A stretch of 64,000 bases of DNA from an uncultured bacterium (GTDB lineage: Bacteria > AUK180), in contig CALMGJ010000031.1 of NCBI GenBank assembly GCA_937863565.1, positions 1-64,000 of the forward strand, read 5' to 3'. Position 1 is the first letter of the stretch; every line of letters starts with the position of its first letter. This document shows positions 341 through 63,109 of the stretch, piece by piece. Made by a program: the position numbers and the translations under genes. Under the pieces are notes generated by a model, which ran no database searches, had not been told where the DNA came from, and saw only the letters and a program-made list of their open reading frames with translations.

Positions 341-350
341 GGTACGCTCC

Positions 351-3434: not shown

Positions 3435-3435
3435 A

Positions 3436-4263: not shown

Positions 4264-4271
4264 ATATCCTC

Positions 4272-5507: not shown

Positions 5508-5510
5508 ATA

Positions 5511-6050: not shown

Positions 6051-6056
6051 ATGCTT

Positions 6057-6085
6057 ATTATACTGACTGGTCAGTCTAAAGTCAA
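6057..6085 (-). promoter_or_regulatory. Sigma70 promoter of the tetR-efflux operon (TTGACT-17 bp-TATAAT)
   Basis: -35 at 6085-6080, -10 at 6062-6057, 17-bp spacer. Confidence 0.8.
6062..6075. promoter_or_regulatory. Putative TetR operator (ACTGAC-TG-GTCAGT palindrome)
   Basis: Perfect 6-bp inverted repeat with a 2-bp spacer inside the promoter spacer of a TetR gene. Confidence 0.7.
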
Positions 6086-6185
6086 GCGATTTTTGAATAT
6101 TCTATGATTATATCGAACATACCGTTATATAAAATGATATCGCTCAATGCGGGCAGCATTACATTCGATATTCTCTTTAGGATAT

Positions 6186-41657: not shown

Positions 41658-42491
41658 TCAGTCCCTGTTGAAGATCTTCTCCTTCAGGATAGTGCTGATG
41701 TTCTTGCTCTTGAAAAGGATGAGATTGCATTTTTTATGTTTCATCGTCGTGACAGTCACCTTTTCTCCGGGACCCATCTTCTTCGTAATAAGCCCGTCCA
41801 CAGTGTAAATTATTGGAAAATCATTGCCGTTGACCACTGTCAGTTTCCTGTATCCGTTGAAAACGAGAGAGGGTTCACTGTTGAATTGCGGACTGATCGC
41901 TTTGTAGATCATAAGATCCAGCCCGGCTTCAACGATCGGCCCGCCGGAGGAGTAGCAGATGGCGGAAGAACCTGCCGGTGTGCTCACGATAAGGCCGCTG
42001 GCACGGAGAAGATGATAGAACTCATTGTCCAGATATACTTTAAAATCGAGAAGCCTTGTTCTGCCTTCATTCTCGAATACGATGTCGTTCAAGGCAAAAT
42101 CCTTAACGGGACCGTGCCCCGTCTCGAGAAGGCTCAGAGGAATGTATTTATCATGATCAGACAGTATCTGCTTGAAACCGGCGATAAGCTCTTCCAGCGT
42201 GAAGGATGCGAGAAAACCGATCCTTCCGATGTTTGCAAGAACATATTTATTGTCTATCGAACCGGAATCGTGCAGCATTTTAAGGAAAGTCCCGTCACCT
42301 CCTATGGCTATAACGAATTTCTTTCCGTTCACGAGATCCCTGACGCTCTCGTACTTGTAACCTTCACCGAATATCTTCTTTACTTCCGTGTTAACTGAAA
42401 ATTCGAGACCGCTCCTTTTTACGGTCCTGAACAATTCCAAAAACCTTGTTTTAGCGGCAACCTTGCCCGGATTGATGAATATGCCTATCAT
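41658..42491 (-). CDS. nadK: NAD(+) kinase
   Basis: GGDGTFL, GRIGFL, ALND, STPAGSSA...SGGP. Confidence 0.9.
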   Translation of the reverse strand: MIGIFINPGKVAAKTRFLELFRTVKRSGLEFSVNTEVKKIFGEGYKYESVRDLVNGKKFVIAIGGDGTFLKMLHDSGSIDNKYVLANIGRIGFLASFTLEELIAGFKQILSDHDKYIPLSLLETGHGPVKDFALNDIVFENEGRTRLLDFKVYLDNEFYHLLRASGLIVSTPAGSSAICYSSGGPIVEAGLDLMIYKAISPQFNSEPSLVFNGYRKLTVVNGNDFPIIYTVDGLITKKMGPGEKVTVTTMKHKKCNLILFKSKNISTILKEKIFNRD

Positions 42492-45400: not shown

Positions 45401-46024
45401 ATTGTTCATGTACACTACGGAGCCGTCCACTTTTATCAGGATGCCGCCGTTAAAGGAGAATTCGATCTCATAATCACCGGAAGAAGGTGCGTAGATATTC
45501 TGCCGGATCCTGGCTTTGGCGAACGAATCCTCATTCAGGATCTCGGAGAGCCTGATAACGGGCGATCCGTTACGAATGAATTCCTCCTTGATATCAAAAT
45601 CCTTGCCGATGATGCTCTCCCCGTTCAGGATCATCTCTCCGATCAAAGCATAATCGTCAAAAGGCATAGGACCGGTGATGTAAAAGAAACCGGGGACATT
45701 CAGGGTTTCGAGGATCTTTTTATCGTTCTCTGCCTTTAGAAGCTTCAGATGAAAAAGAAAGATCTTTGAAAGTCTGTCATTACGCTCCGAAAAGAACTGC
45801 TCGGCTTGCTCATAACCTTCCTGACCGTAAGCGCATATGGAGTATATCGAATTCAAGGCGACATATTTCTGTGCCGGAGAGGAGTCCTCATCATAATGAG
45901 ATATCCAATCATCCACGCTTTCGGATATGTTGAAGCGCAGTTCATTGGTAAGTATATCATCGAGGATCGAGGAGGACGCGACTACAATTACTGACAGGAT
46001 CAGAAAAAGAAAAACTCTTTTCAT
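42488..46024 (-). CDS. Large exported TPR + DUF3857-like + transglutaminase-like protein with an intact triad
   Basis: 1178 aa; signal peptide; helical repeats; FDNLQPGSKI (DUF3857-like); YGDCKDK, FNHAI, VDPT. Confidence 0.85.
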   Translation of the reverse strand: MKRVFLFLILSVIVVASSSILDDILTNELRFNISESVDDWISHYDEDSSPAQKYVALNSIYSICAYGQEGYEQAEQFFSERNDRLSKIFLFHLKLLKAENDKKILETLNVPGFFYITGPMPFDDYALIGEMILNGESIIGKDFDIKEEFIRNGSPVIRLSEILNEDSFAKARIRQNIYAPSSGDYEIEFSFNGGILIKVDGSVVYMNNILNEQGLCAYKMHLGLGKGVHSMEIFTGVEQDEWEVSFFFDRRLTFHKDEQARRLPSGKLNNFRVEDPSEWLGLEEEPDPIIKGLALRYAKCFNASERLDYKIFKGLSEEPECHPWVNYFLALLCEDPNEEFQTLKRLERASPDLYHYLTAKALAKGSYYILALEELKKTGTFNKLSSILMLDILSNLKYYGEQKIFLDKIKDRDYYDTLDDVIFEGIERNIPEEIMSKLSSLYEEHPYSRYDIMMAQLNLYNTWNDPAGAAEMLSRRVGVFPGMKHIRMAQLRALIRTGKEESLKLCFEEFRERFLYDTSFLKLLVDISMISGKNKSEEYLREIVRLDPQDLAAIELLSEITEEKDYAQSLMDKDRPDVKAAPVIPEEFKDHDLIELYQRTIVEIKSNNSATRHFENLFFINAPSAIEKMNAFPVYYNSASEYVKIDEILVTSPDGTMFSNKKFQISSTGGHDKILSDWKAYVLYFDNLQPGSKIYLRYRIMQFSKKSFKDKFPGLIEYLKETHPVIKKDFLIIRPKDKKVRFKVYLASEKPLEYADKGYEIAAWNFKNVPGIKSIPLMAPYPEVFPYLVITTFSDWGEVYSWAKGLFEERLRINAKLKDTYAGLGIKANEDFNSKLEKIFSFVAKDIHYLGIEYGLNGYQPRFPAKVIAEKYGDCKDKSTLMKVLLELAGIKSNITLVRTRDIGILETLPILTAFNHAILTVYDQKGNEYIVDPTANWNKALEVPESLYGAAAFEMTSSGPRLKTLNKNMGQNDKVTVDTTAEFEGFDLILKRKMRSSGMFAAEARALLSNRETAVEQLNARWNAVHQKTEVKDLYQQGTSEDDEINFSYSVRIFDFLNPKHLMFKPLLEDFSMYNDYASLDKISSRMLLPVKDNRDIRNMIVCPENASFEFDESALSVENKIFSAKIDLKKSGRDAILVYSFHVKKQEIEVQEYADFKRDIVKMRNFFEYEIKMVFK

Positions 46025-49000
46025 AAATCCCTCCCGAGGAGGAAATACAGTTCCTCCGATTTATCCACCTCATATGCGACCGGCAGGATCCTTTCGAGAT
46101 CATCCGGATAGTAAAGAGCGGGATATATCTGAAGAGTTCTTACGATCTTATATGCCCCGTCATCCGTTCTGGTCATTCTGATGTCGTAATCAAAAACCCC
46201 CTTCACCGATCTGCTGTACTTGAATGCAGGTTCCTCCAGTTCCTTATCCGTTCTGATGATGCACTCGTCCTTGTTCACGATAAGCTGCGTGATGACCAGC
46301 GGGAGGCTTCTCGGATAATCCGCGCTGAAGTAATTCGTTAACCCCGCAGGCTTCATCGGAAGAAGAAAAATACCTTGGGAATTCTTCTTCTCGTATATTC
46401 CCGAGACCCCTACTTCGAATGGCGAAGTGTCCCTTGAGCAGTTTAGCTTGTAATCGGTCAGTTCAAGAAAAGGCAGATACGAGGAGATGAACTGCCTTAC
46501 AATTGAATCCTTGGTGTTCTCGTCGAAAAAATACTGTTTAGCGGAGGCATAAAGGCCTTTAAAGGAGATCAGGGCCGTAAGTCGGAAATTTTCGGACGGG
46601 CGCCATTCATATCTCACGTCTACCTCGTTCTCGATGCCTGTTTCAAGCGCTTCGGCAACCCTTACTTTTAGGCCGTCCGCAGTGAGGTATGCTTTACGCA
46701 GAATGCCCGCTTCACCGCCGAAGGGAACGAACGATTCGCTGAAGGTGACAAGAATGTTCTTGCCGCTGCAGGGAACGATAATGCCGTGTCCTGTGAAGAT
46801 CTCATGATTGAATATAGCCGTATCCACAGTAGTGTAATCAGTGTAAACGACGAACTCGTGAGGGATATTCCAGATCTCCAGGCCGGCTTTAAATACCCTT
46901 AATTTATCTATGTATTCCGCTTTCCTGGATTTAATGATCTCCGGCAGGGTCCTGTTCTTATATGGATCGTCATCGCCTGTGAATTTCGTTTGAAGTTCTT
47001 CGTAAAGGACCTTCATTTTTTCCTCAGGATCGCCCTTGAAACTTTCAAAATACTCTTCAACAGTATGTGAAAGCTCGCCTCCCGGGAAAAGTTCGAAATA
47101 GAAATTACTGACGAAGAGCGCCGGATCGAGCTTGGTGCCTACGAGAAGAGAAGCCAGGAAAACATAGGGTTGAGGTATCATGTTCTCGGAACGTACGCGA
47201 TTCAGACCCGTAGCTTCGTATTTATATGTGAAATAACCCTGCAGATCGGACGTTTTCGAGTATTTGAGCGTGGACAGGTTCTTCTGGTTCAAAAGACTGG
47301 AGCTTATCTTGAGCTCCTTGGGAATATTCAGCGATACGCGATAACGCTCAATGGGGATGGTCACCTGGAAAGTGATCGGGGGCAGGGCATTATAGAACAA
47401 ATGAAGATACGGTCTTGAATGGTATGAAAAGGACGCATATTCTATCAAAGCCCCTTCCTCGAGTCCCTTGAGGGAAGCCGCATTGCCCGAAGATGAATGG
47501 AACAGGTATTCCTTGCCGTCCTTGCCGATGACCTTGAGAAATACAAGGTCTCCCTGAACCCGGAAATTCGTGAAATAGGATACGCCCTTCTGATCATTTA
47601 TTCTGATAAGACCGTAATCCGCCCTTCTGCAGCTCAGGTCCTTGAAGAAAGTATATTCGGTCCGTTCGTCGATGATCTCGATGGGGAAATCCTTCTTGGG
47701 AGGAAGCCCGTCATAATTCCCACGCTCTTTCCCGGATCCGAAAAGTTCCGCATCCAGTTCGGGATCCGCTTCAAAGAATTTATCCATGATCTTCCTTTTC
47801 AACGAAATGTATTCCTCCGTCTTCCCCCGGTTCAGTACATGGTCCGCCAACATAAGATAATATTCCAGATTCTGCGGATAAGTTTCGATGAGTTTACCGT
47901 ATGTTTTTCCCGGTTCAAAACCTTCCACGGCAAGCCGCGAGAAGATGCCTGCCGTTTGAAGATCGTTCTCAACGAAGCCCTTCGGCAGTTTACTGAGGTA
48001 TTCCGCGGCACCGGAATGGTCTTTTGTCTCAAGAAAACAGGTCAGCGCGGAGATGATGCACTGTATCGTAACTACTCCTCTAGCCTCCAATGAGCGCAGT
48101 ATCTCAAGGGCACGAGCGTGGTCGTTCGACGATATCAGGTAATCTACCGCGGCAAGATCGATCATGTTCGGCGAAACAGGATCGCTCACGCCGGACATCA
48201 ATTCCGAAGCGTACAGCTTCATCCCCTCCCTGCTTTTAACAAGAGCTTTGAAATAGCGGGTCCAGCGGAAGTCCGGCCTGGTTTCTTCGATCTTCCTCAG
48301 ATAGACCTTCGCTTCTTCGAGATTATTGTCGTTCAGATAGTATTTGGCCAGAAAAAGCATTGCTATCGTATTGTCGGCCGCTTCGAGATAGGAATTCATC
48401 AGGTAATCAAAGGAATAATCCTTGAATCCCGCGGCAGGATATTTATCGCAGATGATCCCGGCGAACAGTCCGTAGACCGGAGAATCCGAATCACGCGCCA
48501 GAAGAGAGGCCAATTCATGGCTCTTCACTCCGTTTCCGTATGAATTGTACATGGCGGCGAGTTTGAAATTATAGCGTTCGATTGAGGAGTAATCACCGAA
48601 ATGCTCTGCCGGATCGAATATTTTATGGCCGTTCATAGAACCTTTTTTCATTTGGCCGTAACGGATCTTAAGAGGTTTGAGATCGCCGCTCAAAAGCTGG
48701 ACTGAGAAACCGGATTCGATATCCTCCTTCTCATAACCTCCAAAAGAATATCCCGCATCCGTTTTCATGAGAACGGTGTGCCCTCCTTTGCTCAGATCCA
48801 GACGGATGATCTCTTTTACTCCTTTATCGTGGTCCTTCTTTCTTCTTTGATGGACCAGAACACCGTCGATGAAGAGCTTGTACGGAACCGTAGAGAGCAG
48901 ATTGACATAATAATTTCCCGCGGCAGGGACTTCGAAGGACGATGCGAAATACACTATCCCGAAAGGATCGGAATAGATGGTCCTCAAATCGACCCACCCC

Positions 49001-49563
49001 GCATAATTCGATCTGGCCGCGTAGGGTCTGATCTTGCCGAAATATGTGGAGTATTCCTTTTTAACGTTAGGAGTGCGTTCAAAAGGGAAAACATTCTCAA
49101 AATCAAGAATGCCCTTTTCAATGAAGGGCCCGCAGACGAAATAATCGTCCAGATATCCCCATTCTTCCTTCGAAAACGTCCTTAGGTCGTATTTTTTAAG
49201 GATAGACATTATATAAGCGGCATCGCAGAGGAATACGGGATCATCGCACTTTTTCTTCTTCAATGCATCGAAGAACCTTTCTTTATATGAAAAGACCTCT
49301 TCGTTCTCAAGGAGATAATAAGCATAGAAATCAAGGTTCAGCGGATTGGTCTCCTCTTCGAACAGGGTGAACAGGTCCTCGGTAATGCTCTCTCCCCTGA
49401 GTTCTTTAAGAAGAGCGGCCTCGAACAGGCCGTCGCTCCCCGAAATCCCTTTTTGTCTGAGCGTTTCCAGGCGTTCGGTGATATTGTATGCCTGAGGCCG
49501 TATCGCCGTAAGAATAAAACTAATCAGAAATATTGATATCTTTGCCGATAATGATCTGGACAT
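46021..49563 (-). CDS. Large exported TPR + DUF3857-like protein with a degenerate transglutaminase-like domain
   Basis: 1180 aa; signal peptide; N-terminal beta domain (CGPF...LSKGGHTVLMK); TPRs; GLEEGALIEY; no GDC motif. Confidence 0.75.
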   Translation of the reverse strand: MSRSLSAKISIFLISFILTAIRPQAYNITERLETLRQKGISGSDGLFEAALLKELRGESITEDLFTLFEEETNPLNLDFYAYYLLENEEVFSYKERFFDALKKKKCDDPVFLCDAAYIMSILKKYDLRTFSKEEWGYLDDYFVCGPFIEKGILDFENVFPFERTPNVKKEYSTYFGKIRPYAARSNYAGWVDLRTIYSDPFGIVYFASSFEVPAAGNYYVNLLSTVPYKLFIDGVLVHQRRKKDHDKGVKEIIRLDLSKGGHTVLMKTDAGYSFGGYEKEDIESGFSVQLLSGDLKPLKIRYGQMKKGSMNGHKIFDPAEHFGDYSSIERYNFKLAAMYNSYGNGVKSHELASLLARDSDSPVYGLFAGIICDKYPAAGFKDYSFDYLMNSYLEAADNTIAMLFLAKYYLNDNNLEEAKVYLRKIEETRPDFRWTRYFKALVKSREGMKLYASELMSGVSDPVSPNMIDLAAVDYLISSNDHARALEILRSLEARGVVTIQCIISALTCFLETKDHSGAAEYLSKLPKGFVENDLQTAGIFSRLAVEGFEPGKTYGKLIETYPQNLEYYLMLADHVLNRGKTEEYISLKRKIMDKFFEADPELDAELFGSGKERGNYDGLPPKKDFPIEIIDERTEYTFFKDLSCRRADYGLIRINDQKGVSYFTNFRVQGDLVFLKVIGKDGKEYLFHSSSGNAASLKGLEEGALIEYASFSYHSRPYLHLFYNALPPITFQVTIPIERYRVSLNIPKELKISSSLLNQKNLSTLKYSKTSDLQGYFTYKYEATGLNRVRSENMIPQPYVFLASLLVGTKLDPALFVSNFYFELFPGGELSHTVEEYFESFKGDPEEKMKVLYEELQTKFTGDDDPYKNRTLPEIIKSRKAEYIDKLRVFKAGLEIWNIPHEFVVYTDYTTVDTAIFNHEIFTGHGIIVPCSGKNILVTFSESFVPFGGEAGILRKAYLTADGLKVRVAEALETGIENEVDVRYEWRPSENFRLTALISFKGLYASAKQYFFDENTKDSIVRQFISSYLPFLELTDYKLNCSRDTSPFEVGVSGIYEKKNSQGIFLLPMKPAGLTNYFSADYPRSLPLVITQLIVNKDECIIRTDKELEEPAFKYSRSVKGVFDYDIRMTRTDDGAYKIVRTLQIYPALYYPDDLERILPVAYEVDKSEELYFLLGRDL

Positions 49564-52247: not shown

Positions 52248-53473
52248 TTCAGCTCCTCCCGAAATACTTTTAATGTCTTCACTTTCTGTTCTTTTTTCTT
52301 CAGGTCCTTTACGGCAACCGAATCCGACGAAGCTTCCTCATCTCCCACGAGGAGAGCGTAAACGGTTTTCATTTCCGAGGCATATCTCAATTGAGCGCCG
52401 AGTTTCACCGAACGGTCGGGGTAATAGAACACCCTGCGCTTTTTCTCCGTCAGCATTCTCAGAAGTTCCAGTTCGATAGCCCGGTTGCCGAGGTTCGCTA
52501 TGAAATACTCGATATTATCGCTCGTGCCTCCGACGGTTTTCAGTATCTCGAAAAGCCTTTCGAAACCCAGAGCGATCCCGCAGGCAGGCACTTTCTTATC
52601 GATAAGAGCCTCTACAAGGCCGTCATAACGTCCCCCTCCGGCTACCGTTCCCATATCTGCGCCTTTCAGTTTAAATTCGAAGACGGGGCCCGTATAGTAT
52701 GAAAGGCCTCTTGCAAGAAGCGGATTGAACTTGAGCTCCTCCGACGAACCGCCTAAAGCCTTATAGTAATTTCTGATCTCGCTGAAAACTGCGGGAGGTT
52801 CATACTCCTCCTTCAATGCCCGTATGAGCTTGCCGGCATCGCTCTGAAAACCGTTCTCCTTAAGATATCTGCAGACATCTTCTTCCGAAGTTTTATCCAG
52901 TTTATCTATCGCCCTTAAGAATAATGCGCTCTGCCCGTCCGGGATGCCCTTTTCCGAAAGAAAAGCGTTCAAGCGGTCCCTGAAATTGATCTCCGCCTCG
53001 AACTCCCCCAAACCCAATTCCCTGAGTATCTTGGCCGTTGCGGAAAGTATCTCTCCTTCTATGTCCGCAGAATCGCTGCCGAGGTAATCTATATCGCACT
53101 GGTAGAATTCCCTGAACCTTCCTCTCTGAGTATTCTCGCAGCGGTATACTCTTTGTATCTGGTATCTTTTGAAAGGGAATTTTATCGAATTATAGTTCTG
53201 AGCCACATAGCGCGAAAGCGGAACGGTCAAATCGTATATCATCCCCAAACGTCTTCCGCCCCTGTCGGTGAAATTGTAGATGAGTTTATCGGCCTCCTCG
53301 CCGTATTTATCCATAAGAAGGTCGTATTTCTCCAATGTCGGCGTTTCTATAGGAAGATAGCCGAATGAGCGGAAATTCGCCGTTATCACGGATATCATCC
53401 TCTCGCGCAGGACCATATCGTCGAAATTGAAATCCCGCATTCCTTTCACTGTTTGAAGAAGTTCTTTTTTCAT
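52244..53473 (-). CDS. hisS: Histidine--tRNA ligase
   Basis: KGMRDF, YDLTVP, GRFREFYQCD, RGLSYYTG, GGGRYD, GFER. Confidence 0.97.
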   Translation of the reverse strand: MKKELLQTVKGMRDFNFDDMVLRERMISVITANFRSFGYLPIETPTLEKYDLLMDKYGEEADKLIYNFTDRGGRRLGMIYDLTVPLSRYVAQNYNSIKFPFKRYQIQRVYRCENTQRGRFREFYQCDIDYLGSDSADIEGEILSATAKILRELGLGEFEAEINFRDRLNAFLSEKGIPDGQSALFLRAIDKLDKTSEEDVCRYLKENGFQSDAGKLIRALKEEYEPPAVFSEIRNYYKALGGSSEELKFNPLLARGLSYYTGPVFEFKLKGADMGTVAGGGRYDGLVEALIDKKVPACGIALGFERLFEILKTVGGTSDNIEYFIANLGNRAIELELLRMLTEKKRRVFYYPDRSVKLGAQLRYASEMKTVYALLVGDEEASSDSVAVKDLKKKEQKVKTLKVFREELK

Positions 53474-53491
53474 ATTTTCACGCTATTTGAA

Positions 53492-53520
53492 ATTATATGA
53501 TAAAAATGCTTTTTTTTCAA
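53492..53520 (-). promoter_or_regulatory. Sigma70 promoter of the hisS-led gene run (TTGAAA-17 bp-TATAAT)
   Basis: -35 at 53520-53515, -10 at 53497-53492. Confidence 0.68.
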
Positions 53521-53663
53521 ATACCGGCGGTTTTCCCCGATCACATCTTCTAAGCAGCGGGGAATCCGTGAAATCCTTTTTGAAAGGGTGTTAATGGATC
53601 GGATATTATCGGGTGTAAGCGGGGAGCGGCAGCGGAGAACTCCGCGGTTCAACCCGGAGTATT

Positions 53664-53891
53664 TCAGGGTTTAGTGTTTCCCTTTATGATGTCCTTTGCC
53701 CTATCTTTCTGATGAGGAAAAAGGTCCGCGGGAACAGCCAGTTTCCCAAGCGTCTTCGCGATCGTGAACCTTGCGCATTGCTCCAAACCTTTCTCGCAGT
53801 ATTTTTCCTTCATCATCATGGCCGATGTAGGCATATTGGCCATCACGTCGTTGAAAAAGGGGCAGGTCTGTAAAAATTCACACTTTGCCAT
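53664..53891 (-). CDS. Small Cys-rich hypothetical protein (four Cys)
   Basis: 75 aa CEFLQTCPFF...KYC...CARF...VPADLFP; AAGGAG RBS; candidate upstream promoter. Confidence 0.75.
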   Translation of the reverse strand: MAKCEFLQTCPFFNDVMANMPTSAMMMKEKYCEKGLEQCARFTIAKTLGKLAVPADLFPHQKDRAKDIIKGNTKP

Positions 53892-53940
53892 AGCGGTCTC
53901 CTTGAATTCTTTTATCAGTCAACCTCAAAGAATTTCAACG

Positions 53941-53969
53941 GTTATACTACTTTTCCCATCGAAATTCAA
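53941..53969 (-). promoter_or_regulatory. Possible sigma70 promoter for the small Cys-rich gene (TTGAAT-17 bp-TATAAC)
   Basis: -35 at 53969-53964, -10 at 53946-53941. Confidence 0.45.
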
Positions 53970-53970
53970 G

Positions 53971-55269
53971 TTATTTATGGAGATCTTCGATCATCGGATC
54001 AAGAAAGAAGCTCAAAGAAAGGAGATCGGCCGTTCCTCCCGCCGAGAAAGAATGAGCGGACGCATATTTTCCGAATTTGTCCATTTCGCGGGCGATATTC
54101 CCGGCGGACGGGTCCAAGGCCTCCTGGATCCTGCGGTATTCCTCAAGTCCTGTTCTCTTTATCACTTGCGTATCGTCCGTATTTTTAAAAAGTGTCAGGA
54201 ATCTTCTTAGGGCGATCTCATTGATGGAAGCGGCCCCAGGATACTTCTTCCTCAAGGCAGTGATAACTGAAGGCAGGCCTTTTTTTAATTCACTCCTTAT
54301 CCCTCCTATTCCGTATTTCCTGAACACTTCACCCGAAGCGGTATTCAGTCCGGGGTCCCTCAGCTCTTTTTCAAGGCCTCGGCAGATATTTTTCACGGCG
54401 CCAATGAGCGCTTTCAAAGAAGGTTTTTCTTTCCAAGCGATAATATACCCGAGGGAGAAACAGATCACGGAGTAAAGAAAGACCGCACCTTTCAGCGTAT
54501 TGACGCCGCCCGTTCTTTTGAACATCTCTCTTTCAATGCCTCTGCCTTTCAGTCTTATATCCGCAATAGTTGACGTGTTCGGAGGTTTATCATACGTGAA
54601 ACCGAGATCATACAGACTCCCGAAGCGTCCAGATATCGTTTCTATCGAATCCAGGAACATCCTGAAGTTCATATCGCTATGACGGCTGCTGTCCAGCATA
54701 TCGATCATGCCGTATTTCGGCGTTGTGCAAAGTTCCGAAAGAAGGGCCCGGCGTATGCGTTCTTTCAGCGTCCTCCTTATCTTATTATGCAGGAACGCCC
54801 TCTCTATGACCCGATCGTATCCCGACAGCACTTCGACGGCCGTATGCTTTCCGGAAAGAAAACATCCGCGCATCTCCCTGCTGCCGCAAATAACGCAGCG
54901 ACGGGGTTCGGAGATCCTTTTCACGGGCCCCTGACGGGAAATGACATCGATATCGGAGAGCTTGAAGATGCCTATTCTCTCGAAGCGGATAAGGTCCTCC
55001 TTCAGCGCTTCAGGCCCTTCAACATTTCTTGGAGCGAAGATGCCCTGATAACCCGCATCGTCATGAAGCGTTTGAAGATGTGCCAGCCTTTTGCCGAAAT
55101 TCTTTTTAAAATAGGAAAGACACAAAGAGAAATATGCCTGAAAACGGCGTGAGCGCTTTTCCGTGCCGGGCGCCGTGAAAGAAAAGGTCACGATCGCCGA
55201 GTGGGACTTTAAATATTTCCCGTGAACGGATGTCCTTCTTTCGCGGGCGTCGAGAATCCTATTTTTCAA
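53971..55269 (-). CDS. citXG: CitX-CitG fusion (holo-ACP synthase + triphosphoribosyl-dephospho-CoA synthase)
   Basis: CitX: ILDARERR, DIDV, RRCVICG; CitG: ELCTTPKYGMID, HSDM, TGGVNTLKGAVF, SAGGTADL. Confidence 0.88.
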   Translation of the reverse strand: MKNRILDARERRTSVHGKYLKSHSAIVTFSFTAPGTEKRSRRFQAYFSLCLSYFKKNFGKRLAHLQTLHDDAGYQGIFAPRNVEGPEALKEDLIRFERIGIFKLSDIDVISRQGPVKRISEPRRCVICGSREMRGCFLSGKHTAVEVLSGYDRVIERAFLHNKIRRTLKERIRRALLSELCTTPKYGMIDMLDSSRHSDMNFRMFLDSIETISGRFGSLYDLGFTYDKPPNTSTIADIRLKGRGIEREMFKRTGGVNTLKGAVFLYSVICFSLGYIIAWKEKPSLKALIGAVKNICRGLEKELRDPGLNTASGEVFRKYGIGGIRSELKKGLPSVITALRKKYPGAASINEIALRRFLTLFKNTDDTQVIKRTGLEEYRRIQEALDPSAGNIAREMDKFGKYASAHSFSAGGTADLLSLSFFLDPMIEDLHK

Positions 55270-56818
55270 CGATCTGCTTTATCGTATCTATTATCGTTCC
55301 GTCCCTGTATTCGATAAGGCCGCATATTTTATCCGTGAACTCCAGCGGATCGGGTTTGCCCGTTATTTTCTCCGTTTCCTTTTTCATATCGCGGATATCG
55401 ATTAGCGGGAGTTTCGAATTCTTCAGAGAATCGGCAAGAACCTTATTGGCGGGATTTATCGCGATGCCCCGTTCCGATACGAAAGCGTCCACCGTCTCTC
55501 CCGGAGTTATCACCGTGCTCACCCTTTCTACGATCATTGGAAGGCGTGCCCTGTATGTCGGAGCCACCACGATCGTGAGTTTCGCGCAGGCGGCCGTATC
55601 CGAATGGCCTCCCGACGCGCCCTGAGCATAACCGTGGGAATCGACGAGAACGTTCACATTGAAATCTGTATCGATCTCATAAGCGGCAAGAACGACAACA
55701 TCGAGATTATTTATAACGGCGCCGGAATTGAAAGGATTGGCATAGAAATCGGCATTGATCTCCACATGCTCACTGTTCTCATGGAATGAGTTCACTACGC
55801 CTTTATCGAAACTCTGGACATCGTACATCCTTTTGAATATGCCCCTTTTCAGAAGTTCCACCATATAGCTTGATATGCCACCGATAGTGAACCCGCCGGT
55901 GATCTTCTTCTCTGTCATATGATCTGACAGATACTTGGCCACGGCAAGAGAGGCTCCGCCAGCGCCGGCCTGGAATGACATCCCCTCCTTGAAATATTCG
56001 GAGTTGAGAATAAGCCGGGCTGCATTCTCTGCAATAAGATGGTCGATAGGATTCGTGGAAAGCCTTGTGGAACCGCTTCCGATCTTGTCGGGATTGCCGA
56101 GTTTGTCTATTAAAGTCACTGTATCAACCTGATATTGCGGTATCGAGACCGGGCTTAAGGGAAAATCAACGAGATTATCCGTTACGGCTATCACGAAATC
56201 GGCGTACATCGCATCTACCATAGCATAGCCGAGTGATCCGCAGGCAGAGGGTCCTGTTATGCCGTTGATATTTCCCTCCCTGTCGCATGCAGGAGCGCCG
56301 ATGAAGGCTACATCTATCCTGTTCTGCCCCGTTTTTATGGCCCTAGCCCGTCCTCCGTGAGAACGTACGACAACAGGGATCTCCATTCCGCCGCGTGAGA
56401 CGAATTTTCCGAGATCCCCTCTCAGCCCCGAAGTGTGGATCTGTTTGACCACTCCCTTTTTCACATACTCCCACACACCTTGGTGCGGATTCGCAAGAGA
56501 ACTCGGGAAAAGCACAAGATCCCTGAAGCCCATCTTTTCCAGAATAGGCATGACTTTCATAAGAAGGAAATCCCCGTTCCTGATATGGTGATGAAAAGAG
56601 ATGGTCCCTCCGTTCTTCAATCCCGATCTCTCGACAGCCTTCTCGATTGAATCGGTCAGTTTCGAGGTTCCCGGCATGACGGCCCTTACTTTCACAGGCA
56701 CGGTCCGCAGATCCTCGGCGCTCAGGTTCCTGATCCTCTCGAAAGCCCCTTTATAGGGAAGAAGCTTCCCGAGGCCTTCTAAGTTACCGGGTATTTCCAC
56801 GTTAAGTTTATTCTTCAT
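55259..56818 (-). CDS. citF: Citrate lyase alpha subunit (citrate:acetyl-ACP transferase)
   Basis: ISFHHHIRNGD, SHGGRARA, CGSLGYA, GASGGHSDTA, EYRDGT; start ATG 56818 or 56830. Confidence 0.96.
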   Translation of the reverse strand: MKNKLNVEIPGNLEGLGKLLPYKGAFERIRNLSAEDLRTVPVKVRAVMPGTSKLTDSIEKAVERSGLKNGGTISFHHHIRNGDFLLMKVMPILEKMGFRDLVLFPSSLANPHQGVWEYVKKGVVKQIHTSGLRGDLGKFVSRGGMEIPVVVRSHGGRARAIKTGQNRIDVAFIGAPACDREGNINGITGPSACGSLGYAMVDAMYADFVIAVTDNLVDFPLSPVSIPQYQVDTVTLIDKLGNPDKIGSGSTRLSTNPIDHLIAENAARLILNSEYFKEGMSFQAGAGGASLAVAKYLSDHMTEKKITGGFTIGGISSYMVELLKRGIFKRMYDVQSFDKGVVNSFHENSEHVEINADFYANPFNSGAVINNLDVVVLAAYEIDTDFNVNVLVDSHGYAQGASGGHSDTAACAKLTIVVAPTYRARLPMIVERVSTVITPGETVDAFVSERGIAINPANKVLADSLKNSKLPLIDIRDMKKETEKITGKPDPLEFTDKICGLIEYRDGTIIDTIKQIVEK

Positions 56819-57698
56819 CTTCGGCTCCATTCTCGAGGGCAGCTATCGCGATGATCTTCTGCGCTCTTTTCACTACGGGAGGATCTATCATTTTTCCGCG
56901 TATCGCGATCACTCCTTTCCCTTCCTTGAGCGCCGCCTCATAAGCATTAATAACTTCCCTTGCCCACTCGATCTCTTCGGATGCGGGGCGGAAGACATTG
57001 TGAACGGGTTTTATCTGGCGCGGATTTATCACAGCTTTCCCGGTGAACCCGAGTTTCTTCACCATCTGTGTTTCTTCTATAAGTCCCTGTTCATTGTTCA
57101 CATCGGCGTAAACAGTATCCATCGCGTCTATACCTGCGGCCTTTGCCGCCATCACGATCCTGGTTCTCGCATAGAAGAGCTCGTCACCCTTTTCTGTTTT
57201 CACGATCTCCATATCAGCAGTAAGGTCCTGACCACCTATTGTAATGGCGTCGATCCTTTTGGACGAGAGCGCGATATCGAAGGTGTTCTCGACGCCGAGG
57301 GCGGTCTCGATCATCGGGTGTATCCTGATCTTCCTTCCGATCCCCTTTTCCTTTTCTACCTCTTCGAGCATTTTCTCGAGTTCCCTTACATCGTTCTTAC
57401 TATTGGTTTTAGGAAGCCTCACAGCATCAAGATTGCCGTCCACTACGGCAATAAGATCATCGCGGATGTATTCTGAGCCCATCGGGTTCACTCTCACCGT
57501 TATCTCAATATTTGAAAATCCCCTGTTCTTTATGAAACTTCCAACAAGCTCTCTTGCGGCATCCTTCTCAGATGCGGCTACACTGTCCTCAAGATCGAAA
57601 AGAACGCTGTCCGCTCCGAAAATATCCGCGTTCCCTATCATTCCGGGATTATTGCCGGGAATATAGAGCATGGTCCTTCTCAGTTTGAACTCCTTCAT
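56808..57698 (-). CDS. citE: Citrate lyase beta subunit (citryl-ACP lyase)
   Basis: RRTMLYIPG, FDLEDSV, IETALG, GFTGK..INPRQI, GKMID.P. Confidence 0.95.
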   Translation of the reverse strand: MKEFKLRRTMLYIPGNNPGMIGNADIFGADSVLFDLEDSVAASEKDAARELVGSFIKNRGFSNIEITVRVNPMGSEYIRDDLIAVVDGNLDAVRLPKTNSKNDVRELEKMLEEVEKEKGIGRKIRIHPMIETALGVENTFDIALSSKRIDAITIGGQDLTADMEIVKTEKGDELFYARTRIVMAAKAAGIDAMDTVYADVNNEQGLIEETQMVKKLGFTGKAVINPRQIKPVHNVFRPASEEIEWAREVINAYEAALKEGKGVIAIRGKMIDPPVVKRAQKIIAIAALENGAEDEE

Positions 57699-57955
57699 TT
57701 GCTCCCCCTCTTCAGAGCCGTGGAAACCCGGGCCCTTATCGTAGGGTCTAGCGCTCCGGCGTCCTGGATCTTGATATAGACCGATTTAACGCCGGCTCTT
57801 TCGAGCTCTTCCTTCACTGTTCTCTCAATGCTCTTTCCGTACTGCTTTTTCACGGACGATTCGATCTCGATCTTCAGGGAATCGGCCGGTTCCACGAAAA
57901 CCATCAGATCGCTTGATTCGAGACTTCCGCACTGAGCTTTATTTTTTATCTTCAT
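57695..57955 (-). CDS. citD: Citrate lyase acyl carrier protein
   Basis: GSLESSD (prosthetic-group Ser), SSVKKQYG, DAGALD..IRAR. Confidence 0.95.
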   Translation of the reverse strand: MKIKNKAQCGSLESSDLMVFVEPADSLKIEIESSVKKQYGKSIERTVKEELERAGVKSVYIKIQDAGALDPTIRARVSTALKRGSK

Positions 57956-57971
57956 CAGATACCCCGCTTTG

Positions 57972-58004
57972 AAAATGAAAGGGAGAAGGCTGAAGCCCTC
58001 TCCC
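57972..58004 (-). terminator. Intrinsic terminator-like hairpin between icd and citD
   Basis: Minus strand GGGAGAGGGC-TTCA-GCCTTCTCCC (10-bp stem, one G-U pair) followed by TTTCATTTT. Confidence 0.65.
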
Positions 58005-58019
58005 CGTTTGATGCATTAA

Positions 58020-59288
58020 TTACATGTTCCCTATTATCGCGTTCCCGAATTCGGAGCACTTGATCTCTTTCGCGTTCTTCATCAACCTTGCGAAATCGTA
58101 TGTGACCGTTTTCTGTTTTATCGTTTTGGCAAAAGCCTTCATGATGAGCTTGGCCGGTTTGGTCCATCCCAGATGCTCGAGCATCATAACGGAAGAAAGA
58201 AGAACGGAGCCCGGATTCACTTTGTCCATGCCCGAATACTTGGGGGCCGTACCGTGAGTGGCTTCGAAAATGGCATGTCCGGTCATATAGTTGATATTGC
58301 CTCCGGGAGCAATGCCTATGCCGCCTACTTCCGCCGCGAGGGCGTCGGAGATATAATCCCCGTTCAGGTTCAAGGTGGCTATCACTTCGAATTCATTGGG
58401 CCTCGTGAGTATCTGCTGAAGGAAATTGTCCGCGATCGCGTCCTTGATAACGATCTCCTTGCCGTTTTTCGGGTTTTTGATCTTCATCCAGGGGCCTTTG
58501 TCTATGAGTTCTCCGCCGTATTCTTCCTTGGCCAACTCATATCCCCAGTTGCGGAACGATCCTTCGGTGAATTTCTGGATATTCCCCTTGTGAACGAGGG
58601 TCACCGATGATCTGTCGTGGGAGATCGCATACTCGATAGCGGCTCTTACGAGCCTTTTGGTGCCTTCCTCGGAGACCGGTTTGATGCCTATGCCCGATGT
58701 TTCGGGAAATCTTATTTTAGCGAAGGCTTTTGGGAAATGTTCTTTGAACAGTTCCCTGAATTTTTTATTATCTTCCGTTCCGTTCTCGAATTCAATGCCT
58801 GCATATATGTCCTCGGTATTCTCCCTGAAAATGACCATATCTACCAGTTCAGGTTGTTTCACAGGTGACGGTACGCCCTTGAAGTATTTCACGGGCCGGA
58901 GGCAGACATAGAGATCCAGCACCTGTCTCAGTGTCACGTTCAGGCTTCTGATACCGCCGCCGACGGGCGTAGTAAGGGGGCCTTTGATCCCGATAAGGTA
59001 TTTCCTGAATGCAGTGATAGTATCGTCCGGAAGCCAGTTCTGGAACATATTGTACGCTTTTTCCCCGCCGTAGACTTCATACCACACTATCTTCTTCTTT
59101 CCGCCGAAGGCCTTCTCAACAGCCGCGTCAACGACCTTCTGGACAGTTCTCCAGATATCCGGTCCCGTCCCGTCACCTTCAATGAAGGGAATGATCGGGT
59201 CGGCAGGGACTTTCATTTTGCCCTTTTTCATGACGATCGGCGTACCTTGCGCCGGTTCCTTGTACTGCGTAAATTTAAGCTCTCCCAT
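58020..59288 (-). CDS. icd: Isocitrate dehydrogenase, NADP-dependent, E. coli-type
   Basis: [42 protein letters not shown]. Confidence 0.97.
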
Positions 59289-61237
59289 TATTTACCTCCG
59301 TTTTTATGTTTGTTCCTGATGAAGTTCATCTTGCCGCCCGCCTTTATCCAAAGTATCTCTTCGCTTGTCAGCGGGTGGACCAGTTCATAGATTTTGTTCT
59401 TCGTTATATTTTTCATCGATACGGGCTGTTTGGAAAGATCGGATGTATCGATCTCTATCTTATCGCCGAGGAAGATATCATCGTAATCAGCCTTATTCTT
59501 GAATTCAAACGGGATGATACCGAAATTGACGAGGTTCGCAAGATGTATCCTGGCAAATGATTTCACTATAACAGCGTTCACTCCGAGATACATGGGAGCG
59601 ATCGCTGCATGTTCCCTTGAGGAACCCTGGCCGTAATTCTCTCCGCCGACGATGATACCGCCGCCTTTTTCCTTCTTATCAAGAGCTCTCTGGTAGAAAT
59701 CCTTATCCACAGAGGAAAAGACGAATTTGGATATCTCGGGAATATTCGAACGGAGCGGAAGTACCTTTGCTCCGGCCGGCATGATATGATCGGTGGTTAT
59801 ATCCTCACCGACCTTTATCAGCACTTCTCCCTCAAGTTTGCTTTTTAAGGGTTCCTTGATCGGAAGAGGTTTGATATTGGGGCCGCGCTTCACTTCTATT
59901 TTCATCGACAGGTCCGCGGGAAGCGGGAAGATGATCCTTTTATCATCTACGCTGTATTTTGAGGGCAGCTTAACCTTGAAAGGCTTGATATTGAGCGTTC
60001 TCGGATCGGTCATTTTGCCCGTTATAATGCAGGCGGCGGCCGTTTCAGGAGATGCGAGGTAGACCTTGGCGGTCTTTGTTCCCGATCTTCCTTCGAAATT
60101 GCGGTTGAAGGTCCTCACGGATACGGCATTGTCCCCAGGCGCGAAACCCATCCCTATACAGGCGCCGCAGGAGGATTCTAGAAGCCGTACGCCGCTGTCT
60201 ATGAATATCTTCAGATAACCTTCGGCGGCAAGATGCTGCATGATCTGCCTGGAACCGGGCAGAAGGCCTGCGCTCACTCCGATGGGAACTTGACGCCCTT
60301 CGATCATTTTTGCAACAGTCACGATATCCGCATAAGAGGAGTTCGTGCATGAACCTACTACGATTTGATTGACTTCGAGATCGGCAAGTTCGCTTACGGC
60401 AACGACATTCCCGGGTGAATGGGGCTGTGCCACCATTGGGACGATTTTGGAAAGATCAATATCGACTATCTCATCATATTCGGCATCGCGGTCCGCCTCG
60501 AACTTCACCCACTGCTCTTCCCTGTTCTGTCTTTTCATGTAATTCTTCGTTATTTCATCCGAAGGGAAGATCGATGTGGTGAGGCCCATTTCGGCGCCCA
60601 TATTAGTGATCGTCGCTCTTTCAGGGACTTCAAGCGTTTTCACGCCCGGACCGGCGTACTCGAATATCTTGTTCACGCCGCCCTTCACATTGAATCTCTT
60701 GAGAAGCTCGAGAACAACATCCTTTGCCGACACGAAGGGTTGGAGTTTGCCCGTGAGATTGATCTTGACCACTTTGGGCATTTTAAGAAAATAGGGCTCG
60801 CCTGCCATGGCGAAAGCCACATCAAGGCCGCCGGCGCCGATGGCGAGCATGCCAATGCCGCCACCCGTTGGAGTGTGGGAATCGGAACCGAGCAGGGTCT
60901 TTCCCGGAGCGCCGAAGCGTTCGAGATGGACCTGATGGCATATCCCGTTACCCGGCCTCGAGTAATAGAGACCGTATCTCTGGGCAATAGTTCTCAGGAA
61001 AGTATGATCATCATCATTTTTAAAATCTTCCTGGAGCGTATTGTGATCGACATAGCTTACGGACTTTTCCGTTTGAACGCGGTCGACACCGAGACTCTCG
61101 AATTCGAGATAGGCCATCGTGCCTGTCGCATCTTGTGTCAGCGTATGATCGATCTTTATCAAGATCGGTTTCCCGACGGTCAGATCGCCTTCAACAAGAT
61201 GGGCTTTTAAAATCTTTCTTGTAAGATTCAAACCCAT
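59288..61237 (-). CDS. acn: Aconitate hydratase (short ~650-aa type)
   Basis: TQDATG, GICHQVH, DSHT, GSCTNS and CGACIG (Fe-S Cys), [14 protein letters not shown]; upstream of icd. Confidence 0.92.
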
Positions 61238-61317
61238 ATGAACCTCCTATGGTTGAACACAGAACATTTATTTTTCAAAAAAAAATGAACGTTCCGCATA
61301 TACCGCGGATTTTCGAG

Positions 61318-61346
61318 ATTATAGCATTGAAAAACCTTTTTTTCAA
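61318..61346 (-). promoter_or_regulatory. Sigma70 promoter of acn-icd-cit (TTGAAA-17 bp-TATAAT, extended -10)
   Basis: -35 at 61346-61341; -10 at 61323-61318 preceded by TGC; AGGAGG RBS before acn. Confidence 0.72.
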
Positions 61347-61684
61347 GAGGAATGAAAAAAGTGCCGAACCTGTTCACCCTGCAACCGGATCTTTCTTCAT
61401 CCCCGTAAACGAATAGATCCCCAATCTGCATTCCTTGACGGATGATCTGCGTATATATCGCGAATTAATACGATTCACCCCTATTCCATTATTCTTATGG
61501 CTAACAACTTGTCAAGGCGCTATACTTAACATTCCCTGTTTAATTATACTGTTTAGATGTCCTGGAGATTGGCCTAGCGGATTTCATCATTATAAACACA
61601 TTAAAAACAAGATTTAACTTAAGACATCTAACTTATTTTTTATACGTTATTAATACGAAATATTCTTAGTATAATTATTCTAAA

Positions 61685-63109
61685 CTATTTCAGCCTGTAC
61701 ACCATCTCCTCAACAAGCCTTACAACATGTTTCGGAAGGTCTTCTATCGGAACTCCGGCCTCGATAGAAACGGAAGCCTCGATCTCGGAGGTCTCAACGT
61801 CAACGAGGCGCGAGGTGACAAAATACTTCTTTCCGAGTTTTGAAACGCTCCCTACGACCATCTTGTGGACAGAAAGGATCTTCCCTATACTGACAGCACA
61901 TTCGGCGTCCGTGCAGCCCCCCTGTTGGAAATTGACCTCTTTGAGGATATTGTTGATAGCGCCCCTTTCAAGGACCTTGAAATAATCGGTATTTATCATC
62001 TCATGCCTTACAAAATCCGTGATGATGACCGCTTCCTCGGCCGGCATGTTCTGGGCCGTGAAATCGAGAACTGCGACAAGTATCTTTTCGATAGGTTTTT
62101 CTTTCTTGACAGGCTCCTTCTTTACCGTTACTTCCTTTTTCGGTTTGGGTTTCTTTATTCTCGGGGGTTTCGGCACTTTCGGACCTTTCTCTTTTTTAAC
62201 GATAACGTCGGGAGTTAAGTTCGGCAATGAATATCCGTATCCGAGGCTTATGTAATGCTGGCCGCCCGTCTCGCCGGGATCGAAGGCGTAATCAATATCA
62301 ACACCTTTATATTTGATCCCGATTCCGGCCATAACAGGCATGCTGAGGTGGTTCTGAATATAGAGATATCCGGCACGGATATACGCAAATTTTACCTGGT
62401 ATTCTACGGTCAGGCCTAATGTCAGGCCGTCTCCTGCTCTCTGATTGATCTGCGAGATAAAAAGGCCCGCGCAAAGTGCGTCGTTCAGGAATTTTTTAGA
62501 GGCGGAAAAATTGATGCTGTCGAATTCGGAGTAGGCATTCTCTGTTTCGGAACTTACCCCGAGCTTAATATTTTTCATGGAAAGGCCTAAGAGGAAGCCC
62601 GATATCCCGTAATTGAGACCGGCGGTTAAAAAGCTCAGTGAATCCTCTGTGGCAGCAACCTCAGTTCCGTTCATATATACGACATTGTTCGCGTAGTTCG
62701 TGTACTGAACGCCTAAGAACAATTTTTCCATCGCTTGATATGTAAAACCCAATCCGAATTTCGTGTTCCCGGGGACTTCAAACTCATAATCGAACTCGCC
62801 GAGATCATTGTAAATATCGAAAGCGGGATTACTGAAACTCGCAAAATCTAAAAAGAACGACATTCTCCCGTATTTCCCGGACAGTATTCCGGAAAAGACC
62901 CCGGCACCGGGGAAAATGCCCGTAAATTGCGTTACCCTGGCATTAAGTGTATTCATGGCCAATCCGGAAAACGAAGGGTTCGTCAGAATGCCTGGAACAG
63001 GATTGGATGCCGAAGCCCAAATATGTGCAGCATCGTAAATGATGAACATATCGGAAGCGCTCAACAGCACGGATGCGGACAAACAAACTAAAAGGATCAA
63101 TTTTTTCAT
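61685..63109 (-). CDS. PorV/PorQ-like outer-membrane barrel fused via a Pro/Lys linker to a CsgG/HfaB-like domain
   Basis: Signal peptide; aromatic amphipathic strands ending DYAFDP...HYISLGY; linker KGPKVPKPPRIKKPKPKK; AVLDF...KVLER...CTDAECAVSIGKIL...RLVDVET. Confidence 0.65.
   Translation of the reverse strand: MKKLILLVCLSASVLLSASDMFIIYDAAHIWASASNPVPGILTNPSFSGLAMNTLNARVTQFTGIFPGAGVFSGILSGKYGRMSFFLDFASFSNPAFDIYNDLGEFDYEFEVPGNTKFGLGFTYQAMEKLFLGVQYTNYANNVVYMNGTEVAATEDSLSFLTAGLNYGISGFLLGLSMKNIKLGVSSETENAYSEFDSINFSASKKFLNDALCAGLFISQINQRAGDGLTLGLTVEYQVKFAYIRAGYLYIQNHLSMPVMAGIGIKYKGVDIDYAFDPGETGGQHYISLGYGYSLPNLTPDVIVKKEKGPKVPKPPRIKKPKPKKEVTVKKEPVKKEKPIEKILVAVLDFTAQNMPAEEAVIITDFVRHEMINTDYFKVLERGAINNILKEVNFQQGGCTDAECAVSIGKILSVHKMVVGSVSKLGKKYFVTSRLVDVETSEIEASVSIEAGVPIEDLPKHVVRLVEEMVYRLK

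Follow-up and report, generated by a model that had tools for sequence, protein, structure and literature searches.

Gene content of the acn-icd-cit cluster

We analyzed a cluster of six genes in the genome of an uncultured sediment bacterium of the GTDB lineage AUK180 (GCA_937863565.1), in which aconitase (acn) and isocitrate dehydrogenase (icd) are followed on the same strand by the genes of a citrate lyase. The studied region spans 53971-61346 of the window, by which we mean the whole stretch of DNA analyzed, positions 1 to 64,000 of contig CALMGJ010000031.1. The genome to which the window belongs (G000) comprises 2.27 Mb in 38 contigs and is 95.5% complete. Genes were assigned using NCBIfam/TIGRFAM equivalog cut-offs and Pfam, and genome-wide checks were made with family profiles and, in some cases, with tblastn. 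The six open reading frames (ORFs), acn-icd-citD-citE-citF-citXG, are co-directional on the minus strand (53971-61237), and adjacent genes overlap by 1-23 nt throughout, the sole exception being a 64-nt gap between icd and citD.

The acn gene (59288-61237, minus strand) encodes a 649-aa monomeric aconitate hydratase of the PRK07229 type (NF005558, 953 bits against a cut-off of 612) and was the only aconitase-family gene detected when the genome was searched by tblastn. The icd gene (58020-59288, minus strand) encodes a 422-aa NADP-dependent isocitrate dehydrogenase (ICD; NF005425, 714 bits, cut-off 490), which was likewise the only member of the Iso_dh family detected in G000. Three genes for the subunits of citrate lyase follow: citD (57695-57955, minus strand) for the 86-aa acyl carrier protein (ACP), or gamma subunit (TIGR01608, 92.8 bits, cut-off 63.5); citE (56808-57698, minus strand) for the 296-aa beta subunit, citryl-ACP oxaloacetate-lyase; and citF (55259-56830, minus strand) for the 523-aa alpha subunit, citrate:acetyl-ACP transferase (TIGR01584, 664 bits, cut-off 501), which has close solved relatives in PDB 1xr4 and 2hj0 (E about 1e-155). 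For CitE the best family was TIGR01588, with 334 bits, under its cut-off of 443, and the Pfam family HpcH_HpaI was passed with 223 bits. The last gene, citXG (53971-55269, minus strand), encodes a 432-aa fusion of holo-ACP synthase (CitX) and triphosphoribosyl-dephospho-CoA synthase (CitG), both halves of which passed their Pfam thresholds (68 and 139 bits, respectively) and stayed under both NCBIfam cut-offs. The structure search returned no solved structure for CitD, nor for CitE from a true CitDEF complex.

Comparisons beyond the phylum were made with the best 79 citF loci among at least 592 matches, each with up to 10 kb of flanking sequence (individual loci are given L numbers). CitF was 47-54% identical to the CitF proteins of these 79 citDEF loci, which belong to Bacillota, Bacteroidota, Synergistota, and other phyla, and CitE was 39-53% identical to CitE in 77 of them. 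CitD carries the pair E13-S14, and Ser14, which we take to be the carrier of the 2'-(5''-phosphoribosyl)-3'-dephospho-CoA prosthetic group as in Klebsiella, is kept in 72 of 73 aligned CitD sequences.

The original prediction described the cluster as lacking citC, which is correct for the window and not for the genome: an intact citC (344 aa; TIGR00124, 329 bits, cut-off 262) lies unlinked on contig C13 of G000, with a radical-SAM gene on one side and a SpoIID/LytB-domain gene on the other. Judged from its gene set, CitDEF is an ordinary ACP-dependent citrate lyase, because citC is in the genome, citXG is in all six genomes of the phylum that carry citF (see below), and the CitD serine is kept. 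The suggestion that the lyase might work on CoA esters for want of CitC was consequently not borne out, and a CoA-dependent, carrier-less lyase is ruled out by the joint presence of CitD Ser14, CitXG, and CitC. We also considered a citramalate lyase, since the locus of the best outside CitF match (L033) has no citC; this candidate is disfavored by TctCBA at L033, by the CitA-like kinase and response regulator beside citDEF at L036, and by the linkage to acn and icd here. Because the loci of these nearest outside homologues carry such genes, citrate, rather than citramalate, is most likely the substrate.

Conservation of the cluster within the phylum

The collection searched contained nine species-level genomes of the phylum (G000-G008), all of them metagenome-assembled genomes (MAGs) of 69-96% completeness and too few for statistics. 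We found citF in six of them (G000, G001, G003, G004, G005, and G006), and a CitXG homologue in exactly those six. The order acn-icd-citD-citE-citF is kept in five of the six, which represent four genera and share 63-71% protein identity; in the sixth, G005, the contig ends inside citE. Loci that were retrieved twice, apparently from identical contigs, entered this count a single time. Directly after citF stands citXG in G000, G003, G004, and G005, and it is unlinked in G001 and G006, while citC is full-length in G000, G003, G004, and G006, partial in G005, and cut at the end of the cluster contig in G001. The genes flanking the cluster differ between genera, and the flanks inspected in three genera contained no carrier, oxaloacetate decarboxylase (OAD), or regulator. 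Among the nine genomes, the NADP-ICD equivalog was confined to those bearing citF.

Several genomes of the phylum encode proteins resembling citryl-CoA synthetase (CCS) and citryl-CoA lyase (CCL). Only CitDEF was found in G000, G003, G004, and G005, both systems in G001 and G006, only CCS/CCL-like genes in G002 and G007, and neither in G008 (72% complete); all seven genomes that are at least 80% complete carry CitDEF, CCS/CCL-like genes, or both. The CCL-like candidate is a protein of 258-261 aa in G001 (L029, contig C77), G002 (L026, C13:1-7000), and G006 (L024, C43) whose match to citrate synthase is confined to the C-terminal part and which, on this basis, looks like a citryl-CoA lyase. In these three genomes its gene is followed by one for an HD-domain protein and then by one for a 420-aa aconitase-family large subunit, and on contig C13 of G002 there follow a probable small subunit, an Iso_dh-family gene, and another aconitase-like ORF, of 418 aa. 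A pair consisting of an ATP-grasp protein of ~520 aa and a 301-aa CoA-binding/ligase protein, found in G001, G002, G006, and G007, looks like a citryl-CoA synthetase or a split ATP-citrate lyase (ACL), and in G007 this pair directly adjoins a citrate-synthase-like fragment. From their distribution and neighbors, the CitDEF and CCS/CCL-like systems look interchangeable, each sitting with an aconitase and an isocitrate-type dehydrogenase. Full-length citrate synthase was found only in G001 and G007 among the nine genomes.

Linkage outside the phylum

Within the best 79 outside citF loci, citC lies in the locus in 54 cases, a close aconitase (at least 48% identity and at least 98% coverage) lies within 10 kb in six, and a close ICD (at least 56% identity) in two. 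One of the 79, L059 of a Thermoanaerobacterium sp., has all the genes contiguous, in the order citD-citE-citF-acn-icd (326-6659), with acn and icd products 60% and 58% identical, respectively, to those of the window. No classical carrier was seen among the neighbors of L059, where an AbrB-family (PF05145) membrane protein follows the block, and the locus may represent a separate instance of this wiring or the place it came from. We scanned the neighbors at three of the six aconitase-linked loci, and two of these three were carrier-linked catabolic clusters, L110 holding a 2HCT gene and L052 holding MFS, LysR, an EIIC-GAT-like permease, and PrpF. From these counts, the carrier-linked loci, and L059, it follows that a carrier-free acn-icd-citDEF arrangement is rare outside the lineage, yet not unique to it.

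Genome-wide gene content of G000

The PF00285 family (Si-citrate synthase and citryl-CoA lyase) had no match in G000, and the HMGL-like family, which includes Re-citrate synthase, isopropylmalate synthase, OadA, and pyruvate carboxylase, had none in any of the nine genomes. ACL and CCS are likewise missing from G000, since PF00549 yielded only SucCD and FdrA. On this gene content, CitDEF is the sole enzyme predicted in G000 to make or break citrate. We also noted that G000 has no LeuCD/LeuB-type genes besides acn and icd; the lineage is probably unable to make leucine and probably without pyruvate carboxylase.

Searches for the usual companions of citrate fermentation gave little. G000 had no match to 2HCT (PF03390), DASS (PF00939), or OAD-beta, and tblastn of G000 returned no homologue of TctABC, 2HCT, or a CitA-type sensor domain; for the sensor, the query was a single Pelosinus CitA-like kinase that matched generic ATPase domains only, and no search with CitAB/CitI families was made. 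In these whole-genome searches the window contig held no citC, citrate synthase, HMGL-like, 2HCT, DASS, CitMHS, or OAD-beta gene. The earlier statement that no permease, oad gene, or citrate synthase accompanies the cluster is therefore accurate for the window contig, but the genome does hold one permease of PF03600 (CitMHS superfamily), unlinked on contig C7, and a malic-enzyme-family protein, encoded on contig C28 and not near the cit genes, that could decarboxylate oxaloacetate. The permease matches no NCBIfam citrate-carrier model; a search with it as the query matched G000, matched G001 only weakly and in part, and gave nothing in G003-G006. Its candidacy as a conserved citrate carrier is not supported, given that it does not co-occur with the lyase.

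These genes bear on the possibility that the cluster serves the catabolism of imported citrate or other tricarboxylates, with the PF03600 permease or another carrier bringing in the substrate, the lyase splitting it, and the malic-enzyme-family protein decarboxylating the resulting oxaloacetate, while Acn and ICD would either divert citrate to 2-oxoglutarate and glutamate or feed isocitrate and aconitate into citrate. The full citC, citDEF, and citXG set is that of citrate fermenters, a permease and a malic-enzyme-family protein are at hand, the oxaloacetate decarboxylase CitM of lactic acid bacteria is itself of the malic-enzyme type, and two of the three aconitase-linked outside loci scanned (L110 and L052) are carrier-linked and catabolic. 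We nevertheless regard this explanation as distinctly improbable: the permease is unlinked and unlike the modeled citrate carriers, the query gave nothing in G003, G004, G005, and G006, all of which bear the cluster, the transport, decarboxylase, and sensor families listed above were not found, and carriers and regulators are absent from the flanks in three genera, in contrast to the TctCBA genes at L033 and the CitA-like kinase and response regulator at L036.

The remainder of the central metabolism encoded in G000 has a reductive appearance in parts, and includes enzymes that would let the left and lower arms of the TCA cycle operate reversibly. CdhC was found in none of the nine genomes, and hence no Wood-Ljungdahl acetyl-CoA synthase. 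GTP-PEPCK had no match in G000, which does contain a divergent ATP-PEPCK-like ORF. Fumarase and SucC score above their cut-offs, and the genome carries three genes of the glutamate dehydrogenase (GDH) family together with two PorA-type and two KorA-type oxidoreductases and IorA. The KorA-type subunits score 557 and 501 bits against a cut-off of 411 (NF006412), and one is fused to an OorD-like ferredoxin domain. At ~86-104 kb of contig C28 (L015, L021), a co-directional supercluster encodes fumarase, KorA (the OorD-like fusion), KorB, and KorG, along with an HdrA2-like protein, two subunits of a [NiFe] hydrogenase (VhuG-like and VhuA-like), a CCG protein of the HdrB/SdhE-like kind, a TfrA-like flavoprotein, the malic enzyme, and hydrogenase maturation (hyp) genes. 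This supercluster is likely to be the partner of the cit cluster on the reductive side.

A putative role in a reductive TCA route

Because no citrate synthase was found and the lyase genes share one cluster with acn and icd, the lyase probably serves a Krebs cycle that likely operates in reverse, and the genomic context supports its assignment to the C6 branch of the tricarboxylic acid (TCA) cycle and speaks against a citrate-fermentation locus of the classical type. This was the central claim of the original prediction, and it was borne out by the linkage in five of six citF genomes and four genera, by flanks devoid of carrier, OAD, and regulator, by the lack of a citrate synthase, and by a carrier candidate that does not co-occur with the lyase. 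A citrate synthase, citC, and a transporter elsewhere in the genome, combined with transcription of the cit genes apart from acn-icd, had been named as evidence that would speak against it; citC was found, and neither a citrate synthase nor a convincing carrier was.

We propose, with a probability of roughly 0.5, that CitDEF cleaves citrate, without spending ATP, within a reductive TCA route. In such a route, pyruvate would be carboxylated to malate by malic enzyme, malate would be converted to fumarate by fumarase and then to succinate by a soluble fumarate reductase linked to Hdr and hydrogenase, and succinate would pass via succinyl-CoA (SucCD) to 2-oxoglutarate (KOR-type oxidoreductase), which could alternatively be derived from glutamate via the three GDH-family enzymes. 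From there the route would continue through isocitrate and citrate to oxaloacetate and acetate. The enzymes of the cluster would thus form a three-step module that uses no ATP (2-oxoglutarate + CO2 + NADPH <-> isocitrate <-> citrate <-> oxaloacetate + acetate), in which CitXG would make the lyase holo and the unlinked CitC would keep it acetylated. Since no malate dehydrogenase was found, conversion of oxaloacetate to malate would need malic enzyme or a putative aspartate bypass. The identities of the genes, their conserved linkage, which genes are present or absent, and the complementary occurrence of CitDEF and CCS/CCL-like genes are observations; we infer which substrates the enzymes use, that the genes are co-transcribed, in which direction flux runs, and whether the route closes into a CO2-fixing cycle or is only a branch.

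Taken as a whole, the three steps probably lie near equilibrium, and the module may therefore run in either direction, depending on whether glutamate and 2-oxoglutarate or aspartate, oxaloacetate, and acetate are in excess. The equilibrium constant of citrate lyase, roughly 0.3-1 M, favors cleavage at physiological concentrations. Two directions had been proposed at the outset, and the genomic context favors the one in which cleavage ends a reductive route, with citrate formation keeping a lower probability.

In the citrate-forming direction, CitE would condense acetyl-S-ACP with oxaloacetate and CitF would free citrate by acetate exchange, the lyase thereby replacing citrate synthase; CitC would restore hydrolyzed acetyl-ACP, and Acn, ICD, and glutamate dehydrogenase would pull a small citrate pool toward 2-oxoglutarate and glutamate. 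The retention of acn and icd in a genome where neither Si- nor Re-citrate synthase was found is in keeping with this direction, as are the GDH-family genes, the citrate synthase that adjoins the same acn in G001, and the position of the lyase, which is reportedly the position of citrate synthase in the acn-icd operons of Bacteroides and Clostridium. Moller et al. reportedly described in 1987 an ATP-citrate lyase operating in the synthetic direction in Desulfobacter postgatei, and high acetate combined with very slow growth could make a tiny citrate pool tolerable. The net reaction, however, would have no driving force: with K about 0.3-1 M towards cleavage, the citrate level at 10 mM acetate would be no more than about 1-3% of that of oxaloacetate. 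In addition, KOR and SucCD already lead to 2-oxoglutarate, and therefore glutamate synthesis would be independent of citrate, and the CCS/CCL-like genes found in the sister genera are of a kind typically associated with citrate cleavage. Overall, we consider citrate formation rather unlikely as the role of the cluster.

A number of observations weigh against the cleavage of citrate in a reductive route as well. Neither the LDH/MDH family (PF00056) nor Ldh_2 (PF02615) had a match in G000, hence no malate dehydrogenase of either family. The KOR-type enzymes act only presumably on 2-oxoglutarate, the PorA-like subunits (496 and 502 bits) fall under their cut-off of 550, and the TfrA-like flavoprotein (283 bits) falls under its cut-off of 718. 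Three GDH-family genes and five 2-oxoacid oxidoreductases resemble the equipment of a peptide fermenter and not that of an autotroph. In G001 the full-length citrate synthase is divergently adjacent to acn, which fits an oxidative use of acn and icd at least there, and by analogy with the Bacteroides and Clostridium acn-icd-citrate synthase operons the enzyme in the position of the lyase would presumably be a citrate supplier. Expression of the two halves of the cluster could be uncoupled by the hairpin described below, which lies between icd and citD. Finally, the direction of flux is beyond the reach of genomics, and all the genomes are MAGs.

A larger version of the proposal, which we regard as quite unlikely, is a complete H2-driven reductive TCA (rTCA) cycle with ATP-free, ACP-dependent citrate cleavage, in which acetate would be the fixed-carbon product, malic enzyme would replace malate dehydrogenase, and Mvh/Hdr would supply reductant with fumarate as the bifurcation acceptor. 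If true, autotrophic or mixotrophic CO2 fixation would have a fourth way of cleaving citrate, and acetate would in effect be made from CO2 without the Wood-Ljungdahl pathway; with the module near equilibrium, the same genes could also form citrate when acetate and aspartate are plentiful.

Transcription signals and the icd-citD gap

The original prediction placed acn and icd behind one strong promoter and had them followed directly by citD-citE-citF-citXG. A sigma-70-like match does lie upstream of acn (61318-61346, minus strand), with TTGAAA and TATAAT separated by 17 nt, a TG extension, and 11 of 12 consensus positions, but it is a consensus match only, in a region with 17 such sites against 9.5 ± 3.2 in shuffled sequences. 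Gene order and strand were as described; "directly" passes over a hairpin with an 11-bp stem in the 64-nt gap. A further hairpin (61293-61309, minus strand), with a 6-bp stem followed by nine T, sits in the 5' leader of acn after the promoter-like site and ahead of the ribosome-binding site and is a putative attenuator. Terminator-like sites were not enriched in the region (9 against 10.2 ± 3.6 in shuffled sequences), and no Rfam family matched 53400-61800 at E up to 1.

The gap hairpin (57980-58005, minus strand) has 7 G-C pairs in its stem and the tail TTCATTTTCA, a partial T tract, and ends 25 nt ahead of the citD start; it may act in part as a terminator or serve to stabilize the mRNA. Hairpins occur in three of the four compact icd-citD gaps (40-66 nt), those of the window, G003, and G001, and none was found in G006. 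The element is not conserved, being strong but without a T tract in G003, weak in G001, and absent in G006. The gap of G004 is occupied by a structured insert of ~450 nt (L011 6406-6855; predicted -152 kcal/mol for 467 nt), which may be a mobile or repeat element.

The cluster could instead consist of two independent units lying side by side, with the acn-icd transcript stopping at the hairpin and citDEFXG expressed and used apart, and both the hairpin with its partial T tract and the G004 insert at the same position are compatible with that arrangement. Against it, order and adjacency are kept in all five informative genomes and four genera amid changing surroundings, and the NADP-ICD equivalog occurs only in citF genomes. 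Moreover, the 25 nt between hairpin and citD start leave no room for a promoter, and the hairpin is not terminator-like in G003 and is missing from G006. We therefore hold two independent units to be very improbable.

Neighboring genes

Upstream of acn lies a gene for a CsgG-like lipoprotein, and downstream of citXG lie an ORF of 75 codons and then hisS. The 75-codon ORF (53664-53891) was dropped as a candidate part of the system, having neither a family match nor a homologue in related loci. The CsgG-domain lipoprotein gene (61685-63109) has a family of paralogues in G000, where tblastn gave at least seven more matches (contigs C30, C21, C10, C11, and C12). Farther downstream of the studied region, two overlapping ORFs of 1178 and 1180 aa occupy 42488-49563 on the minus strand.

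Comparison with known systems

The citrate fermentation system citCDEFXG is known from Klebsiella pneumoniae, E. coli, and lactic acid bacteria (EC 4.1.3.6), and the cluster studied here is built from the same parts, CitD (with Ser14), CitE, CitF, CitX, CitG, and CitC. It differs in that citC is unlinked, as opposed to its place in the locus at 54 of the best 79 outside loci; in that no carrier, OAD complex, or sensor lies in the locus and none that is convincing was found in the genome; and in that the lyase genes trail acn and icd, apparently within one transcription unit, in a host without citrate synthase.

A second point of comparison is provided by the acn-icd-citrate synthase operon reported from Bacteroides fragilis and the Re-citrate synthase-acn-icd operon reported from Clostridium acetobutylicum. 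In those operons too, a PRK07229-type aconitase of ~650 aa and an NADP-ICD are said to share an operon with the enzyme for the step between citrate and oxaloacetate plus a C2 unit. Unlike them, the cluster studied here has a reversible lyase with no thermodynamic pull toward citrate, and G001 has both solutions side by side.

The closest counterpart in network position is found in Cloacimonadota of Ace Lake (Ca. Celaenobacter). As described in the sections of that study available to us, these bacteria lack citrate synthase, have TFR, OGOR, fumarase, SCS, Mvh, and Hdr in one cluster, and have ACL clustered with aconitase and ICD, from which the authors infer an H2-driven rTCA cycle (PMC8542988). 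To the extent covered by those sections, the operon partners and network position match ours, with CitDEF here where ACL stands there, and in both cases citrate synthase is missing and OGOR, a soluble fumarate reductase, fumarase, Mvh hydrogenase, and Hdr are encoded in a cluster. CitDEF differs from both ACL and CCS/CCL in belonging to an unrelated family, in using an ACP-bound rather than a CoA thioester, in consuming no ATP, and in releasing free acetate instead of acetyl-CoA.

A survey from 2026 of autotrophs using the rTCA cycle or its reversed oxidative (roTCA) form names, in its accessible parts, three solutions for the citrate-cleaving step, ACL, CCS/CCL, and reversed citrate synthase, and no other, which is also the textbook account, and the terms "acyl carrier" and "CitE" do not occur in it (PMC13147460). 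An ATP-independent lyase completing a reverse TCA cycle without ACL or CCS/CCL has been proposed before, according to the accessible portions of the papers concerned. For Ignavibacterium album, CitF and a CitE-CitD fusion were put forward in 2012 as a possible rTCA enzyme by authors who also weigh fermentation and note a putative citrate transporter (PMC3362086); a Rhodospirillum rubrum model pairs citrate lyase with acetate-CoA ligase in a reverse cycle (PMC12151479); and CitE alone has been discussed for Mycobacterium tuberculosis (PMC7164622). In the passages available, the role of CitDEF in a complete reverse cycle in these three organisms was suggested in passing, without experiment. The lineage studied here shares this proposal and differs from I. 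album in its operon linkage to acn and icd, which the available part of the I. album text does not mention, in the conservation of that linkage across a lineage, and in the absence of citrate synthase from G000. A literature search, mainly over open-access titles and abstracts, returned neither a report of an acn-icd-citDEF operon nor experimental proof of a CitDEF-based reverse cycle.

Should our reading be correct, such organisms would escape carbon-fixation screens based on ACL or CCS/CCL markers, and citrate cleavage would come at no ATP cost, with the acetate to be re-activated or excreted. The six genes and citC form a compact set that could be tested by expression in E. coli, and the result would surprise specialists only if the lyase were shown to carry cycle flux. 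The idea of an ATP-independent lyase in a reverse cycle dates from 2012, and this lineage is the cleanest genomic case that we could assemble for it: CitDEF is the sole citrate enzyme predicted in G000, is clustered with acn and icd in four genera, and alternates with CCS/CCL-like genes among related genomes.

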